Shown here one piece after another: positions 18,356-41,652 of a stretch of 41,840 nt of DNA (within the stretch, counting starts at the first letter, position 1; every line of letters starts with the position of its first letter). Below the pieces are notes generated by a model. That model was not told the origin of the DNA, made no database searches, and saw only the letters and a list, made by a program, of their open reading frames with translations. Location of the stretch: the UHGV virus genome UHGV-0211239; one strand, 5' to 3'. A program made the translations under genes and the position numbers. Source of the stretch: a virus.

Positions 18356-18598
18356 GTCTTACCCCCAATAAGGGGATTTGCTCTATTTAATTAGGAATAA
18401 GGTCGATTACTGATAGAACAAATCCAGGCTACTGTGTTTAGTAATCAGATTTGTTCGTGACCGATATGCACGGGCAAAACGGCATGAGGTTGTTAGCGCA
18501 ACCTCCTGCCACCCGCTTTCACGAAGGTCATGTGTAGAAGGCCGCAGCGTAACTATCACTGATGAATTCAGGATAGCCAGTGGCTACGGCTCAGTTAT

Positions 18599-18673
18599 GG
18601 TGCTGGTTAACGGACTTGAACCGCTACACATTCGCTTACAAGGCGACTGCTCTACCATTGGAGCTAAACCAGC
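18599..18673 (-). tRNA. tRNA-Thr-like (anticodon UGU)
   Basis: Manual cloverleaf on minus strand: 7/7 acceptor stem, 4-bp D stem, anticodon loop CUUGUAA, T stem with loop UUCAAGU, discriminator A then CC; one non-WC pair at 27-43 and C at position 14. Confidence 0.55.
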
Positions 18674-18678
18674 ATATT

Positions 18679-18753
18679 TGGCGGGACAGCGTGGACTCGA
18701 ACCACGATAAGAAGGTTAACAGCCTTCCGTAATGACCTTTATACGACTGACCC
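18679..18753 (-). tRNA. tRNA-Asn-like (anticodon GUU), possibly degenerate
   Basis: Manual cloverleaf: anticodon stem 5/5 with loop CUGUUAA, T arm CGUGG-UUCGAGU-CCACG, encoded CCA; acceptor stem has one U-U mismatch, D stem 3 bp. Confidence 0.45.
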
Positions 18754-35476: not shown

Positions 35477-35824
35477 GTGGAAGAAGAAATCTTCACTCGT
35501 GAAGAAGCTGCGTCGTATCTGAAGGTAGACAAAGGCACTATCACGCAGTGGATACGAAGTGGACGACTTCAGGCCGCAAAGATAAATCCAGATAAACCTA
35601 AAAGCCCATATCGCATTTGCAAGTCAGACTGCATTGCGGCGCTTAAGTCTGTGAGACACAATAGCGCGGTGAATGCGGTTGATGTGCAGGAGGTTAAAGC
35701 ATGTCAATCAAACTACGCGGTGGCACGTGGCACTGCGATTTCGTCGCGCCAGATGGATCAAGAGTTAGACGCTCTCTTGAAACATCGGACAAAAGGCAAG
35801 CGCAAGAACTTCACGATCGTCTGA
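35477..35824 (+). CDS. xis: Excisionase (MerR-like HTH)
   Basis: TREEAASYLKVDKGTITQWIRSGRL HTH near N-terminus; immediately upstream of and overlapping int. Confidence 0.65.
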   Translation: MEEEIFTREEAASYLKVDKGTITQWIRSGRLQAAKINPDKPKSPYRICKSDCIAALKSVRHNSAVNAVDVQEVKACQSNYAVARGTAISSRQMDQELDALLKHRTKGKRKNFTIV

Positions 35825-36861
35825 AAGCAGAAGCGTGGAGAGTAAAAAATCTCGGGGAATCGCCGAAAAAGCTATTCAAGGAAGCCTGCATACGGTGGCT
35901 GCGTGAGAAATCGGATAAGAAGTCCATTGATGATGACAAGAGCATTATATCGTTCTGGATGTTGCACTTCAGAGAAACCATTCTCTCTGACATAACAGCA
36001 GAAAAAATAATGGAGGCGGTAGACGGGATGGAAAACCGCCGCCATCGCCTGAACTGGGAGATGAGCCGGGACAGGTGTTTGCGGCTTGGCAAGCCAGTGC
36101 CGGAGTATAAACCAAAGCTGGCAAGCAAAGGAACGAAGACGAGGCATCTGGCAATACTTCGCGCCATTCTCAATATGGCTGTTGAATGGGGATGGATTGA
36201 CAGGGCGCCAAAAATATCAACACCACGCGTTAAGAATGGACGCATTAGATGGCTTACAGAAGAAGAATCAAAGCGCCTGTTTGCAGAAATAGCTCCTCAT
36301 TTCTTCCCTGTTGTCATGTTTGCAATCACGACAGGCCTTCGCCGCTCCAACGTTACAGACCTTGAGTGGTCACAGGTCGATCTGGATAAGAAAATGGCAT
36401 GGATGCACCCTGATGAAACAAAAGCTGGCAATGCGATCGGAGTTCCTCTTAACGAAACCGCATGCCAGATATTAAGAAAACAGCAGGGTCTCCATAAGAG
36501 ATGGGTATTTGTCCACACCAAACCTGCCTACCGAAGCGACGGAACAAAAACAGCAGCGGTAAGGAAGATGAGAACCGACAGCAACAAGGCATGGAAGGGA
36601 GCGTTAAAGCGGGCAGGCATTAGCAACTTCCGATTCCATGACTTGAGGCATACTTGGGCAAGCTGGCTGGTTCAGTCCGGTGTCTCTCTTCTTGCACTTA
36701 AAGAGATGGGAGGATGGGAAACTCTCGAAATGGTTCAAAGATACGCTCACCTTTCAGCCGGGCATCTCACCGAGCACGCGAGCAAAATCGATGCGATTAT
36801 AAGTCGCAATGGCACAAATACGGCACAAGAGGAGAACGTGGTTTACTTAAATGTGAGGTAA
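35701..36861 (+). CDS. int: Tyrosine integrase (P22 Int-like)
   Basis: 386 aa; catalytic-domain motifs (HDLRHTWASWLVQSGV, MGGWETLEMVQRYAHL); attP adjacent. Confidence 0.9.
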   Translation: MSIKLRGGTWHCDFVAPDGSRVRRSLETSDKRQAQELHDRLKAEAWRVKNLGESPKKLFKEACIRWLREKSDKKSIDDDKSIISFWMLHFRETILSDITAEKIMEAVDGMENRRHRLNWEMSRDRCLRLGKPVPEYKPKLASKGTKTRHLAILRAILNMAVEWGWIDRAPKISTPRVKNGRIRWLTEEESKRLFAEIAPHFFPVVMFAITTGLRRSNVTDLEWSQVDLDKKMAWMHPDETKAGNAIGVPLNETACQILRKQQGLHKRWVFVHTKPAYRSDGTKTAAVRKMRTDSNKAWKGALKRAGISNFRFHDLRHTWASWLVQSGVSLLALKEMGGWETLEMVQRYAHLSAGHLTEHASKIDAIISRNGTNTAQEENVVYLNVR

Positions 36862-36876
36862 CTTATTGATTTAAAT

Positions 36877-36921
36877 GGTGCCGATAAGAGGAGTCGAACC
36901 TCCGACCTTCGCATTACGAAT
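36877..36921. other. attP core: 3' half of a tRNA-Thr gene (thrW-type)
   Basis: Reverse complement reads AUUCGUAAUGCGAAGGUCGGAGGUUCGACUCCUCUUAUCGGCACCA (anticodon loop, T arm, acceptor, CCA); 16 bp after int stop. Confidence 0.7.
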
Positions 36922-37250
36922 CTGTAGAACCAATCATAACTATCTGTTTTAGCAAGCATTAACCGCATTCACCAAGCAATAGTTGATGGCACAAACAGAA
37001 AGTTGATGCATGATGTTGTCATGTGTATGTCACAAATACGGCACAACGATCTTCAAACATGTAGCCACCCAGCATAGAAGAGCACAAAGCCTTGCAATCC
37101 AGTGCAAAGCTTTGTGTACCTTAGTTTTGTCTCATAGGTAATTCTGCTTTAACTGCGATGCAGGAATCTGTCACCAGACGCACGTCTCGTTGTCTTATGG
37201 TTTTCCGTTCATGATTAATATGTTAGCTTGTCAAAGTTTGTGTTTAAGAT

Positions 37251-37922
37251 ATGGTGATTGATGCAATGTTAAGCGTTCAGATGACTCCACAAGCAAAAGT
37301 TAGCTTCGAGGAGCAATGTTTTTTTCATGCTTCAGGTCTTGTTGTTGCCCCAATAAATGTTGGAGCATTCTCCTACTTTGGCGCTAATTGTATGCTCGGC
37401 GGCTTTACGATGGGTAGATTTTGTTCAGTTGCTCCAGGAGTAAAAATTGGCCTTGGCGAGCATGAAACTGGGTATTTTTCTACGCATCCTTTTTTCTTTG
37501 GCTCAAAAAATGGTTTTAAAATCCCTGATGGTATAGGAATGCAACGCGACCTCTCTCAACAGAAGCATGGTATACCAAGAATTGGTCATGACGTATGGAT
37601 AGGTGCAAATGCGGTTATCAGGCGAGGTATAACTATTGGTACTGGCGCTGTTATTGCTGCTGGCGCTATTGTCACCAAAAATGTCGAGCCATATTCAATC
37701 GTAGGTGGCGTTTCTGCAAAACACCTAGGGTACAGATTTGAGGAATCAATCATCAAAGAGTTACTGGATAGCCAATGGTGGGAATATGATTTAAGCTCAT
37801 TTATTGGGATTGATACAAGGACACCGACGACTTTTTTAGAGCAGTTTAATGCTGTAAAAGATAAAAAGAAGGCATCTTATAAGAGATTTACAATTCTTCC
37901 ATCCGGTGAAATTGTTGAATAG
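37251..37922 (+). CDS. Hexapeptide-repeat (left-handed beta-helix) acetyltransferase; candidate surface-polysaccharide O-acetylase
   Basis: 223 aa; repeats [31 protein letters not shown]; AT-rich; convergent with tailspike at the P22 seroconversion locus. Confidence 0.75.
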
Positions 37923-37941
37923 CGCATCCCTGCGCTATATT

Positions 37942-40308
37942 TTAAATAAACATAAGAATAAACATCAGAAGTTCCTCGTATCTGATACCATACTGATAAC
38001 CAGCAGGTTTAATAATAACCTGCCTTCCTGTGTAATATTCCTCGTCGTACCACTCTCCTGTTTCATTGTTTTTAACACTCCTAATTAATACCTCTGGAGC
38101 ATAAATATCATCCCATTCATCATAACACCAGAACGCATAGTTATTAGGGTCAAGACCGTATTTTCTGAGAATATTACCTACAGTTTGTGCACCAACACCG
38201 AAATGAATCCGAGCGCCATCACTCTTGATCTTTACTGCATCTTTAAATTTAAACCTCCAGATATTTTTCTTTATTTCAAGCGCAGCAAGACGCTCTGATT
38301 CTGTTGTTTTCTCGTCAGCCTCAATACGCAATTTCAGCTCTTCATTCGACGTGTTGATACTGCCAGTACCAGCGTATACCTGTGACCATCGAAATGCTGA
38401 TGTTCCGTTTGAGTTAACATTATCAACAGTTGGTTTTATAAGGCCAGAAAAATGAGTTTCAGGTGATGTATGAAGAAGATATCCGCCAGAATCGTTTTTT
38501 GTGCGTAATTCTATAGAGTCTACAATTATTCCACTGCGACGAATAATGATAGCGTTATTACCTTGTGCACCATTGTCTTTCTGAGTGGATAGTGTGTATC
38601 CGGTACGAGTATCTATCCTCCATCTTTTGGTATCTTCTGATGCTTCCTGATTATAAAGATAAATAGAGTTATCAGTGTAATTATTTTTGCCATCAATATT
38701 TGTAAGTGTAAATTTGTTATTTACTTTGTCATCATTGACCATGAAATTGGCAAGAGTGTAGAGAGGAGATGCAGTATACTGGCTGCAATTAAAACCACGT
38801 GCGTTTTGTATGTTAAGTAATGTTGTGACATTAGCATTAATGCTAATATTGGAAAAGTTTGTCGCCTGATTTGCTCCATGTATTGATGATGTTACTCCTA
38901 TCTGAGCTCCAATATCCAATGTACCAAAACTTACATTAATGAAGTTGTTTGCATCGCCACCATCTATAATTATTCCTTTTTTAGTCGTCGTATAACCTGA
39001 TGCACTGCTAATCTCCAATCCATTAATGGTGCACACTCTTGGTCTGATGAGTCTAATTCCTACCCATTCATTTCCGTGGTCATATCCTCCTCCTGCTCTA
39101 TGTATGGCTAGTCCATTAGCAATCAAAAGAAATCTGTTATCAAGATTAATAGGGTGAAGCTGGCTATTAATGATAACGTTTGTCCATATAGACTCACCAT
39201 ACGCATAGCGATTTGATTCGAACACTCTATCCTGAGCATCATAAACACCGTTTAGGGATCTAGCAACATCGACATTGGTAAGATTGAAATATGTCTTCTG
39301 CTTAATTTCAAAAAAATTGGCAACGTTATGCGTTGTGATATCACTCACACGCATGGATAAAATACCTTCTTCTGGAGCGGTGCGAATGAATCCATCAAGG
39401 AACTGTTCATTATAACTTTTGGCTATCTGATAACATCCAACAGCATCAATGCGTTCGATTGTGAACTGCCAACTATCACCACAGTTAAAAGACCATTCCC
39501 AACCGTACTTCTGTGCGAATTCATCAGAATCAATATTTGCAGTCTCAGAACAGAAAGATAAAAATCTAAATGTTGGTTTTGGCCTTAGATGATTAAGCCC
39601 GACACCTCTTGGGGTATATATGGCATTAGCTCCATTCCCGCCTTTGCTTTTAATTGTAAGGTGACTTAAACCAAATTCAACATCATGCTTAGTTGGTGCA
39701 GCGAAAACAAATCCATCTTTTGGTGATGTGGTATTATCAAACACAATAACTGTTTTACCCTGTCCATCGCCACACATATTCACTGGTGGTATATTAACTG
39801 GTCCAATTAAATTATATGTTCCAGTTGGAATATATAACTTTCCACCATCTCCAAGAGCATTTGCTGCTGCAATAAATGCCACCGTATCATCGTTAACACC
39901 GTCACCTTTCGCCCCATAATGCTGTGGCGTAATTAACAGCATACGGTCAGAAAAAATCTCTTCCCTAAGTTGATCAGGATCGTATTTTAATACATTTGGA
40001 AAATAAAACTGCTGAGTGCCATATGCATCATATACAGCCATAGAATGGCCTTGCACAGTTACGAATTTGGCAATCTGCCCGTTATATACCGGATATCCAG
40101 CAGCGTTAATGATGATTGGTTGCGAAACAGGAACATGAGAGCCGTCTTCGTTCTCTACATAAACCTGAATCTGGTTTTCAGGATTTACCGGGTCAGTATC
40201 AATTTTACCGATATAAATTTTGCCATTGGCTACGGATTTAAAAGAACGCGCCATAGTGAAGAGTTGCGAAGGCATACTCACTACAACATTGGCTGTAATG
40301 TCTGTCAT
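37942..40308 (-). CDS. Tailspike: P22-type head-binding N-domain, pectate-lyase-like beta-helix, C-terminal intramolecular chaperone (S74-like)
   Basis: 788 aa; N-terminal about 110 aa matches P22 gp9 ([11 protein letters not shown]...VLKYDPDQ); [13 protein letters not shown] motif; C-terminal SNEELK...[10 protein letters not shown] resembles self-cleaving chaperone domains. Confidence 0.8.
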
Positions 40309-40486: not shown

Positions 40487-41365
40487 TCAGTAGTTATGTA
40501 CTGAAGGAGGTAATTCTTTATTCTTAAGTCTCATCCATGCGGAAAGATTCGTTGGTCCGTCTGGCTCATTAATATCAACATCTCGTGTATGGTTGATTAA
40601 AACATCTCTCGCCATTCCGATAACATACGAGAACTCATGACCGTAGTCGTAGCATCTGCCGGAATAATTCGATTGAATTTGTTTTAATGCCGGATACAGT
40701 TCGCGGAATAATGCCTGTGAGCGGTTGGCATAATCCCATAACCATACAAGACTGTTTGCTTCTTTTGCAGAAAGCTCGTTGGTTTTCTTCTCTTGCTTGC
40801 CGATGAACTCACCTTCAAGCACTACCCTGTGGATGTACTCTACGGCCAGCGGGATTTGTTCAATTGAAAGTTCATCAATGCTGTCAATACCAAAACGCTG
40901 ATGAACCATATTGTATGCATCGTCATAGCGAAGTCCTTTCTTTCCTACCAGCATGTTTACTGCATCGCGTAGCGGTGTTCTTTCCTCAACAGTGGTTTTC
41001 TTTCCTTTTACATACTCGTCATGTTTGCGAATTGAAGGCAGAACTTCTGCTGTTACCCACTTGCGGAATTTGTGCGGGACTGAACCTTTATTGACTGCAT
41101 CGCGGCAGCGCAGAACCAATGTATACATACCTGATTCGCTCACAATGCTTATATTCTGCTCACCACCAAGGGTGTAACTTAAAGTTACTCCCTTTTCATC
41201 GTCATCAAGTGCAGTAAGCGCCTTGCGTGAGTTAGTCAAAGCTAAAGCATCACAAACATCTTTAGCTACAAACCACGGCTCGCCGCACTTGTTAATGACG
41301 CGAATTTCACTGTCGCCAAATTTGAAGATGGTGAAATCGTTTTGTGCCTTTGCTATACTTTTCAT
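40487..41365 (-). CDS. ant: Antirepressor (Bro-N domain)
   Basis: 292 aa; N-terminal [30 protein letters not shown] is Bro-N-like; downstream of arc. Confidence 0.7.
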
Positions 41366-41427
41366 GTCAATATTTCCTAATCCGATTTGTTGATACCGAA
41401 GCCCTGACTGTTACCGCAGTTGGGGCT

Positions 41428-41652
41428 TCAACTTTTCACTTCTTTAAAGTGCCTACCTTCTACAGTTGCTCTGAGATAAAAATTCTTATCTTTACCGTTT
41501 AGTGCTTCCCAAGCATCAACAATGCACTTATTACAGATGTGGACTTCTCGATAACCAATAGCTTTCCTGTCAATATTAGTGAACATAACAGTTTCTTTAT
41601 CTGTCAATGTGGATGCATGACAGAAGTCGCAATCTATATAAGATACCTTCAT
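41428..41652 (-). CDS. Small CxxC...CxxC zinc-ribbon protein between arc and ant
   Basis: 74 aa; Cys at 8, 11, 40, 43; ATG overlaps arc stop; SD gagaggggat. Confidence 0.5.
   Translation of the reverse strand: MKVSYIDCDFCHASTLTDKETVMFTNIDRKAIGYREVHICNKCIVDAWEALNGKDKNFYLRATVEGRHFKEVKS

Follow-up and report, generated by a model that had tools for sequence, protein, structure and literature searches.

Temperate phages related to P22 carry different genes in the slot between the integrase with its attachment site (attP) and the tailspike: gtrABC in P22, oac in Sf6 and neuO in CUS-3. In CUS-3, a phage of Escherichia coli K1, the endosialidase spike bears a self-cleaving chaperone of the type described below, and neuO adjoins the spike gene near the attachment site. 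The product, NeuO, is an acetyltransferase of the soluble, hexapeptide-repeat type whose substrate is a group 2 capsule (PMC3046976), and phage resistance is raised by this acetylation (PMC13001214). Here we analyze the virus genome UHGV-0211239, a stretch of 41,840 nucleotides (nt), hereafter the window, which is the complete genome of a temperate, P22-like E. coli phage and contains a module formed by a tailspike gene and a convergent acetyltransferase gene. The gene order is integrase (+), attP, acetyltransferase (+), tailspike (-), antirepressor (-), and the nearest public matches are prophages of E. coli TUM9803, AVS0578, AH21A060 and GF4, with 99–100% across the module. In our reading, to which we assign a probability of roughly 60%, the module is the host-range and lysogenic-conversion unit of a temperate, P22-like phage whose target is a single rare group 2 capsule type of E. 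coli. No literature describing an acetyltransferase–spike module of this kind was found, and none on phage PSK1; in RefSeq the two genes bear generic names.

The tailspike and the acetyltransferase

The module comprises the following genes and domains:

37942-40308 (-): tailspike gene, an open reading frame (ORF) of 788 amino acids
39970-40308 (-): P22-type head-binding (particle-attachment) domain, residues 1-113 (Pfam Head_binding, PF09008, 4e-66)
38509-39936 (-): right-handed beta-helix, receptor-binding and presumed depolymerase domain, residues ~125-600 (PF12708, AlphaFold model, Foldseek)
38350-38508 (-): stalk segment ahead of the cleavage site, residues 601-653 (End_tail_spike and structure alignments)
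37945-38349 (-): C-terminal intramolecular chaperone domain, residues 654-788 (phmmer against solved chaperone domains)
38347-38349 (-): codon of Ser654, in the motif SNEELK
38332-38334 (-): codon of Lys659, in the motif SNEELK
37251-37922 (+): acetyltransferase gene, an ORF of 223 amino acids; soluble hexapeptide (left-handed beta-helix) O-acetyltransferase of the XAT class, predicted to act on capsule

The initial annotation of the window had proposed a chimeric tailspike with the head-binding N-domain of P22, a pectate-lyase-like beta-helix and a C-terminal segment, SNEELK onwards, that resembles the chaperones of endosialidase-type spikes; each of these assignments was borne out. The Head_binding match spans 113 of 113 profile positions, and the N-domain is highly similar to that of Sf6 gp14 (PDB code 7sg7; 1e-64, ~93% identical in the Foldseek alignment). 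The same domain (residues 7-108, window 40008-40287) also matches WceF from Pantoea stewartii (6tgf), a protein of tailspike-like fold from a bacterial exopolysaccharide locus, with an E value of 2.8e-8.

The central domain contains a Pect-lyase_RHGA_epim match (PF12708) at residues 130-204 (E = 1.6e-9). The AlphaFold2 (AF2) monomer model, based on 27 family members, confidently places a beta-helix at residues ~130-600, with predicted local distance difference test (pLDDT) values above 90 up to residue ~520 and of 65-83 for residues 520-600. Foldseek matches of the spike are the Sf6 and P22 spikes, phi29 gp12, CBA120 TSP3, AlgE4 and Pantoea WceF. Among 5.8 billion proteins, the receptor-binding domain and the chaperone together define a family of small size, with 31 clusters, in which the N-terminal anchors vary between P22 head-binding, Tail_spike_N and T7 tail-fibre N-domains. 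The label "chimeric" is thus justified, because the receptor-binding domain occurs behind several different anchors. The distal half of the beta-helix (residues ~350-600; 38509-39250) is its allele-variable part. Two spike alleles, the second of which is located at L001 20943-23309, are identical up to residue ~300 and past residue ~650 and 46-70% identical over the distal beta-helix; the two are found among hosts that share a K-type, and each is linked to a 100% identical acetyltransferase.

The C-terminal domain gives a Pfam Peptidase_S74 match (PF13884) from residue 654 that is sub-threshold, with 19 bits against a gathering score of 22 (E = 0.0017). In phmmer searches it matches the solved chaperone domains of 7y5s (1e-19), T5 pb1 (4uw8; 1.4e-14) and endoNF (C-terminal intramolecular chaperone domain, CIMCD; 3gw6; 1.3e-10). 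Ser654 aligns with the position of the cleavage serine, which is occupied by Ser in 7y5s and by Ala in 4uw8 and 3gw6; we take the latter two to be S-to-A crystal constructs. Lys659 aligns with the Lys of all three structures, with S-x4-K spacing. The catalytic Ser and Lys, on whose presence the initial annotation had made its proposal depend, are thus found on alignment. Within the 27 family members the Ser is retained in 23 and the Lys in 22, and three of the exceptions lack the whole domain. The stalk ahead of this site gives a weak Pfam End_tail_spike match at residues 621-653 (E = 0.0021), aligns with the residues that precede the cleavage position in 4uw8, 3gw6 and 7y5s, and has a low pLDDT in the monomer model. 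Autocleavage before Ser654 is predicted from these alignments to yield a mature spike of residues 1-653 and a freed chaperone of residues 654-788. The very 3' end of the spike gene (window 37945-37970) contains 2.2 copies of a 12-nt unit, AATAAACATAAG, which encodes a repeated LMFI motif at the spike C-terminus and is probably insignificant.

The gene that converges on the tailspike encodes a hexapeptide acetyltransferase (Pfam Hexapep, E = 9.6e-12), as initially annotated, and a gap of 19 nt separates the two stop codons. All homologs begin at Met6 and the RefSeq version has 218 amino acids, so that the true start probably lies at 37266 (218 amino acids). The best PDB matches by phmmer are type-B chloramphenicol acetyltransferase (CAT; 6pu9, 3e-26) and VatA (3e-24), and the AF2 model (pLDDT 91.5) likewise superimposes in Foldseek to type-B CAT (CatB) and Vat as top matches. 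Invariant across 30 homologs, His71 lines up with the GHR-motif His of 6pu9, the catalytic His of XAT enzymes. No membrane-spanning segment was detected (maximum 19-residue hydropathy 1.43), and Pfam gave no acyltransferase-3 match of the Sf6 Oac type. Identity to type-B CAT and Vat enzymes is 32-41% over the core, and the scores do not reach the NCBIfam equivalog cut-offs of CatB (97.4 vs 350 bits) or Vat (99.6 vs 300 bits); the RefSeq name is "CatB-related O-acetyltransferase".

The match to NeuO (3jqy) is limited to the repeat core (E = 8.9e-5; residues 112-157, 46 residues). A search for tandem repeats in and upstream of the gene, of the kind of the heptanucleotide phase-variation tract of neuO, was empty, and NeuO-like phase variation was thus ruled out. 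In E. coli the enzyme is found in 10 records. No close relative was found in deposited phage genomes, and a reference-genome scan of the subfamily gave relatives of at most 49% identity among the matches listed. The gene is modestly AT-rich, as had been noted before, with a G+C content of 0.41 (0.38 in the receptor-binding part of the spike gene) vs 0.46 for the window.

Host capsule type and homologous capsule loci

Host loci were counted with chimeric BLAST probes, in which receptor-binding-domain DNA was joined to O7 wzy or to kpsE, as places per record; the findings on host loci were then confirmed directly. With the kpsE probe, group 2 capsule genes were found in at least nine host genomes, vs ~31% of E. 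coli overall. Of 5,426 E. coli assemblies, exactly 22 contain the kps region 2 of the host strain NRZ14408 (>=99.7% identity, full length), and the strains of all 10 acetyltransferase-bearing records fall within these 22. The hosts NRZ14408 and Br_112_kylling are of type O7, but O7 wzy was detected in just 3 of 15 spike-bearing records and was absent from AVS0578, AH21A060 and GF43; O7 O-antigen was therefore rejected as the receptor. Since the hosts differ in O-type yet share one rare kps region 2, the group 2 capsule, and not the O-antigen, is the likely receptor. A hexapeptide enzyme that is soluble and cytoplasmic is also better suited to a capsule made at the cytoplasmic face, as in the case of NeuO, than to modification of O-antigen in the periplasm. 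Comparative genomics thus supports the earlier proposal of a distinct glycan receptor and of lysogenic conversion by its O-acetylation, with a correction: that proposal had allowed for either lipopolysaccharide or capsule and had likened the slot to that of gtrABC, an O-antigen system, whereas the evidence favours a specific group 2 K-antigen capsule.

Some hosts carry more than one copy of these genes. NRZ14408 has a second, non-P22 prophage beside yfgI, with a "GH28-related" spike of 860 amino acids (L002 8034-10616; NZ_CP158426.1) whose receptor-binding and chaperone domains are 78.5% identical at the amino acid level and which has no acetyltransferase alongside. E. coli GF4 (NZ_CP172217.1) has two acetyltransferase gene copies and three receptor-binding-domain places, which points to several related prophages in one host. 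In strain 2018-10-1CC (L102 9193-10669; NZ_AP021894.1), torT and torS flank a decayed prophage whose integrase differs from that of the window and which retains an intact acetyltransferase gene next to a spike fragment truncated by IS1. This case suggests that the acetyltransferase gene is kept after prophage decay.

Region 2 of NRZ14408 consists of two genes, which encode a "hypothetical protein" of 1,169 amino acids and an alpha/beta-hydrolase-TPR protein of 329 amino acids. The former is a full-length homolog of polymerases that bear Capsule_synth and HAD Pfam signatures, and its residues 424-786 match Bcs3, the polymerase of Haemophilus influenzae type b (3.9e-28), in what we take to be the phosphatase-ribofuranosyltransferase part. 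The E. coli K-types from K13_K23 to K19 share a protein of >1,100 amino acids, which combines a 3-deoxy-D-manno-octulosonate (Kdo) transferase with a ribofuranosyltransferase-phosphatase, and have ribofuranose-Kdo polymers (PMC13171606; KrkA, PMC12887879). Judged by these descriptions, the host polymerase class fits the published K13-K19 set, and the capsule is predicted to be a ribofuranose-Kdo polymer. An identical region 2 is also present in O25b:H4 strains of sequence type 131 (ST131); a GT140-polymerase cluster labelled E_coli_O25b, with no documented serotype, has been reported in ST131 strains (PMC12887879). The host region 2 has no acetyltransferase of the kind studied here. Region 2 of K13 includes the acetyltransferase "vatD", and K13, K20 and K23 are distinguished solely by O-acetylation (PMC12887879).

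The nearest relatives of the acetyltransferase are encoded in capsule biosynthesis loci and not among housekeeping genes, the alternative raised with the initial annotation. Seven non-phage contexts with relatives of 46-59% identity were examined (L003/L004, L008, L017, L103, L104, L105 and L107). In all seven of them the homolog lies beside a polymerase of 1,160-1,210 amino acids that is a full-length homolog of the host polymerase (70, 60, 46, 28, 28, 28 and 23% identity), and six of the seven are capsule loci of the ABC-transporter (kps) type. The closest case, L003, is from a non-Escherichia enterobacterium with flanks 83.5% identical to E. coli. Its region 2 contains polymerase and acetyltransferase, while the E. 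coli host locus contains the orthologous polymerase without an acetyltransferase and has one on the prophage. The window gene itself is not adjacent to a KrkA-like polymerase, which is provided in trans by the host. The cis pairing of homologs with an orthologous polymerase points to the capsule as the substrate of acetylation.

Two contexts show particular surroundings. In E. coli O15:H12 (L017, one of the seven above; NZ_CP061749.1 738415-756711), a kps-type locus at a non-standard site by a BREX pglZ remnant is interrupted by two IS5-family elements and holds polymerase, acetyltransferase and a beta-helix gene. The nearest context-resolved homolog outside the prophage module, 62% identical (L005 518-1171; L006; L007), lies at the end of a P2-like prophage, convergent with tail-fibre and tail-fibre-assembly genes, and in L006 it adjoins the host suf genes.

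The receptor-binding domain is distributed over several phage types: the second non-P22 prophage, a siphophage-type prophage and a lytic T7/SP6-like phage. In the temperate phage L009, which has a different anchor, a diverged pair is likewise adjacent and convergent (acetyltransferase 56%, receptor-binding domain 59-61%). The lytic T7/SP6-like relative has the receptor-binding domain and lacks the acetyltransferase. The siphophage-type prophage, with a receptor-binding domain of 70% identity, carries in the same slot an alpha/beta-hydrolase-TPR ORF of 323 amino acids (L012 8539-9510, GCA_036749695.1; also L020 12242-13231) that is 48% identical to the 329-residue region-2 protein of the host (2e-111) and may represent a second class of capsule modifiers carried by phages.

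Several capsule loci with acetyltransferase homologs also encode beta-helix proteins that carry twin-arginine (Tat) signals and are homologs of the spike. Their genes are as follows:

L104 3896-6121: Tat-signal beta-helix gene
L017 9527-11356: Tat-signal beta-helix gene
L008 4629-6458: Tat-signal beta-helix gene
L107 6128-7999: Tat-signal beta-helix gene

The 741-residue protein of L104 is 27% identical to the spike over 675 residues, chaperone included (E = 2.5e-48), and its Peptidase_S74 chaperone keeps the S-x4-K dyad (TSDERAK). Proteins of 609 and 623 amino acids from other capsule loci match the spike with E values of ~1e-10. The acetyltransferase gene of L008, like that of L017, converges on the beta-helix gene, and 16 nt separate the two, as against 19 nt in the window.

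In the proposed mechanism, the spike would join the virion via the P22 head-binding domain. The C-terminal chaperone would aid trimerisation of the spike and then cut itself off before Ser654 by means of Ser654 and Lys659. The beta-helix would bind, and probably depolymerise, the capsule made by the KrkA/Bcs3-like polymerase. The acetyltransferase, soluble, dependent on acetyl-CoA and presumably expressed from the prophage, would O-acetylate this same capsule during its synthesis at the cytoplasmic face, as is the case of NeuO for K1. The prophage would thereby supply in trans what related capsule loci encode in cis. An altered capsule antigen and a lower susceptibility to capsule-specific phages, including relatives of the phage itself, are the anticipated outcome; both effects are argued by analogy with the published acetylation of K1 (PMC13001214).

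Capsule types steer the design of vaccines, antibodies and phage therapy against E. coli. Some serotype differences have been attributed to acetyltransferases that in-silico K-typing cannot find inside the capsule locus (PMC13171606), and the module is a concrete, testable candidate for such off-locus enzymes. About half of the sequenced strains of the K-type, which also occurs in ST131 strains, carry the acetyltransferase. If the proposed reading is correct, a mobile enzyme changes the capsule antigen and the phage susceptibility in this half, and the spike is a candidate depolymerase for the region-2 capsule. More tentatively, and with odds somewhat below even, the prophage enzyme may split one E. 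coli K-type into acetylated and non-acetylated chemotypes, and the module may share ancestry with the convergent pair of capsule loci, in which an acetyltransferase accompanies a spike-like beta-helix protein that is exported by Tat and bears a self-cleaving chaperone. In that case, receptor-binding genes would have travelled together with receptor-modifying ones between capsule loci and phages, which points to an exchange of such paired genes between the two.

Weighing the alternatives

A number of observations count against the reading of the module as a capsule-specific conversion unit. Autocleavage, depolymerase activity, the capsule as substrate, the chemistry of the polymer and the exclusion effect are steps that we infer, the observations being domain identities, conservation of the dyad, gene arrangement, the K-type association of hosts and the contexts of homologs. 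For the N-terminal module of the polymerase, a sequence search of the PDB found no match, which makes the assignment of this module as a Kdo-transferase, and hence the polymer chemistry, presumptive. The 329-residue protein of the host locus could be a modifying enzyme of its own, so that it is less evident what a second modification would add. A promoter scan for the acetyltransferase gene gave one weak site vs 3.1 expected by chance. PHROG 8280, labelled colanic-acid degrading, partly matches the spike. The hypergeometric P of ~1e-25 for the association between acetyltransferase and region 2 ignores phylogeny, and the records include duplicate assemblies (NRZ14408 twice; 2018-10-1CC and TBU0218). 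Finally, three hosts without region 2 carry only a related non-P22 spike, and relatives of the receptor-binding domain may have other specificities.

One alternative accepts the capsule as receptor but supposes that the acetyltransferase modifies another glycan or serves a purpose other than exclusion, e.g. to evade immunity or to allow recognition. Substrate and phenotype are both deduced, and the PHROG 8280 label names colanic acid. Colanic acid loci are near-universal in E. coli and cannot explain a restriction to 0.4% of genomes (22 of 5,426), and colanic acid was set aside as the receptor for this reason. The homologs that are paired in cis with an orthologous polymerase favour capsule over other glycans. 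As for a different purpose, acetylation of K1 by NeuO also affects interactions with host immunity (PMC8653822, PMC13001214). We regard this alternative as unlikely, at about one chance in several.

That one lineage happens to carry both module and K-type, so that their association reflects clonal descent and is uninformative on the receptor, is improbable. The duplicate assemblies and a P value blind to kinship speak for it. Against it, O7 and non-O7 strains are both among the hosts, whose sources in several countries were human blood and wound, river water, chicken meat and a wild bird. Backbones with differing integrases and attachment sites carry the module, which exists with two spike alleles. 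This variety of sources, backbones, integrases, attachment sites and alleles makes a purely clonal explanation unlikely. The same receptor-binding domain is, moreover, present on the second, unrelated prophage of NRZ14408.

Slightly less credible still is a receptor in the O-antigen of lipopolysaccharide, with an acetyltransferase that converts the O-serotype by analogy with gtrABC of P22 and oac of Sf6. The slot is indeed used for O-antigen modification in these two phages, two hosts (NRZ14408 and Br_112_kylling) are O7, and acetyltransferases of the XAT class exist in E. coli O-antigen clusters, e.g. in O127 between wzx and wzy. The O127 enzyme, however, is 37% identical to the window enzyme, as compared with 46-59% for the capsule-locus enzymes. 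The window enzyme lacks a membrane segment, unlike the phage O-antigen acetyltransferases, which to our knowledge are all membrane acyltransferase-3 proteins. O7 wzy in 3 of 15 spike-bearing records and the single capsule region 2 shared by all acetyltransferase hosts lead to the same conclusion.

The least credible proposal, that the enzyme is CatB/Vat-like resistance cargo modifying antibiotics or other xenobiotics and unrelated to the tailspike, has in its favour the top solved-structure matches to type-B chloramphenicol and streptogramin acetyltransferases, the "CatB-related" name and the conserved catalytic His, but is opposed by scores far below the CatB and Vat cut-offs (97 vs 350 and 100 vs 300 bits), by the low core identity (32-41%) and by close relatives that consistently adjoin capsule polymerases or phage receptor-binding genes.

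Genomic setting and comparison with known systems

The elements that surround the module in the window are the following:

35701-36861 (+): tyrosine integrase, bordering the conversion slot (Pfam Phage_integrase, 8e-35)
36876-36922 (no strand): sequence like a tRNA 3' half, putative attP core in the spacer between integrase and acetyltransferase (read from the sequence)
37919-37938 (no strand): G+C-rich hairpin, candidate shared terminator (terminator-like site with an 8-pair stem; consensus match only)
40487-41365 (-): antirepressor (Bro-N and P22_AR_C; Pfam), upstream neighbour of the tailspike as in P22

The acetyltransferase gene lies between integrase/attP and tailspike and thus occupies, as the initial annotation held, the slot of gtrABC in P22; the hairpin fills the gap between the two convergent genes. 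ARAGORN calls no tRNA at the putative attP core (36876-36922), which in our view resembles tRNA-Thr(CGU). The position of this core places the acetyltransferase gene at the prophage end once the phage is integrated. A sar antisense RNA, a control element of the P22 immI type, is located directly upstream of the antirepressor gene (41367-41433, +; Rfam RF00262, 72.7 bits). The phage also encodes tRNA-Thr(TGT) and tRNA-Asn(GTT) (window 18598-18753, -); in the near-identical phage_14408_1, the same two tRNAs are flanked by the Q antiterminator region and by the lysis genes.

The slot and its logic recall P22 gtrABC and Sf6 oac, where the gene product modifies the receptor that the phage's own spike recognises. 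Those products are membrane proteins acting on O-antigen in the periplasmic pathway, while the window enzyme is soluble and its receptor likely capsule. The chaperone is homologous to those of endosialidases and T5 pb1 (MEROPS S74), with Ser and Lys aligned and a stalk ahead, but scores under the Pfam gathering threshold.

On the bacterial side, the VatD-like enzymes of K13, K20 and K23 and the KrkA-type polymerases belong, by their descriptions, to the same enzyme class and the same set of >1,100-residue polymerases (PMC12887879, PMC13171606); the difference is that the window gene is carried by a prophage, and the capsule locus, to which it stands in trans, has no such gene. Related capsule loci also encode exported beta-helix homologs of the spike, one of them with the chaperone, in the manner of WceF of P. 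stewartii (6tgf), which is among both the sequence and the fold matches of the spike. These capsule-locus proteins are bacterial and Tat-exported and are not virion-bound.

The closest counterpart is CUS-3, likewise a P22-like temperate phage whose tailspike has the P22 head-binding domain. As with neuO, the window gene has as its neighbour, at the end of a P22-like prophage, the gene of a tailspike predicted to be capsule-specific. The catalytic domain of the spike is a beta-helix in the window and a sialidase in CUS-3, and the window enzyme differs from NeuO in being of the XAT class, in having no phase-variation repeat tract and in the K-type concerned. Most likely, the module rebuilds the logic of CUS-3 from unrelated catalytic families, with a beta-helix in place of the sialidase and an XAT-class enzyme in place of the NeuO type. 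It would then be a second, independently assembled case of the CUS-3/NeuO strategy, which suggests that this strategy is general for capsule-specific temperate phages.

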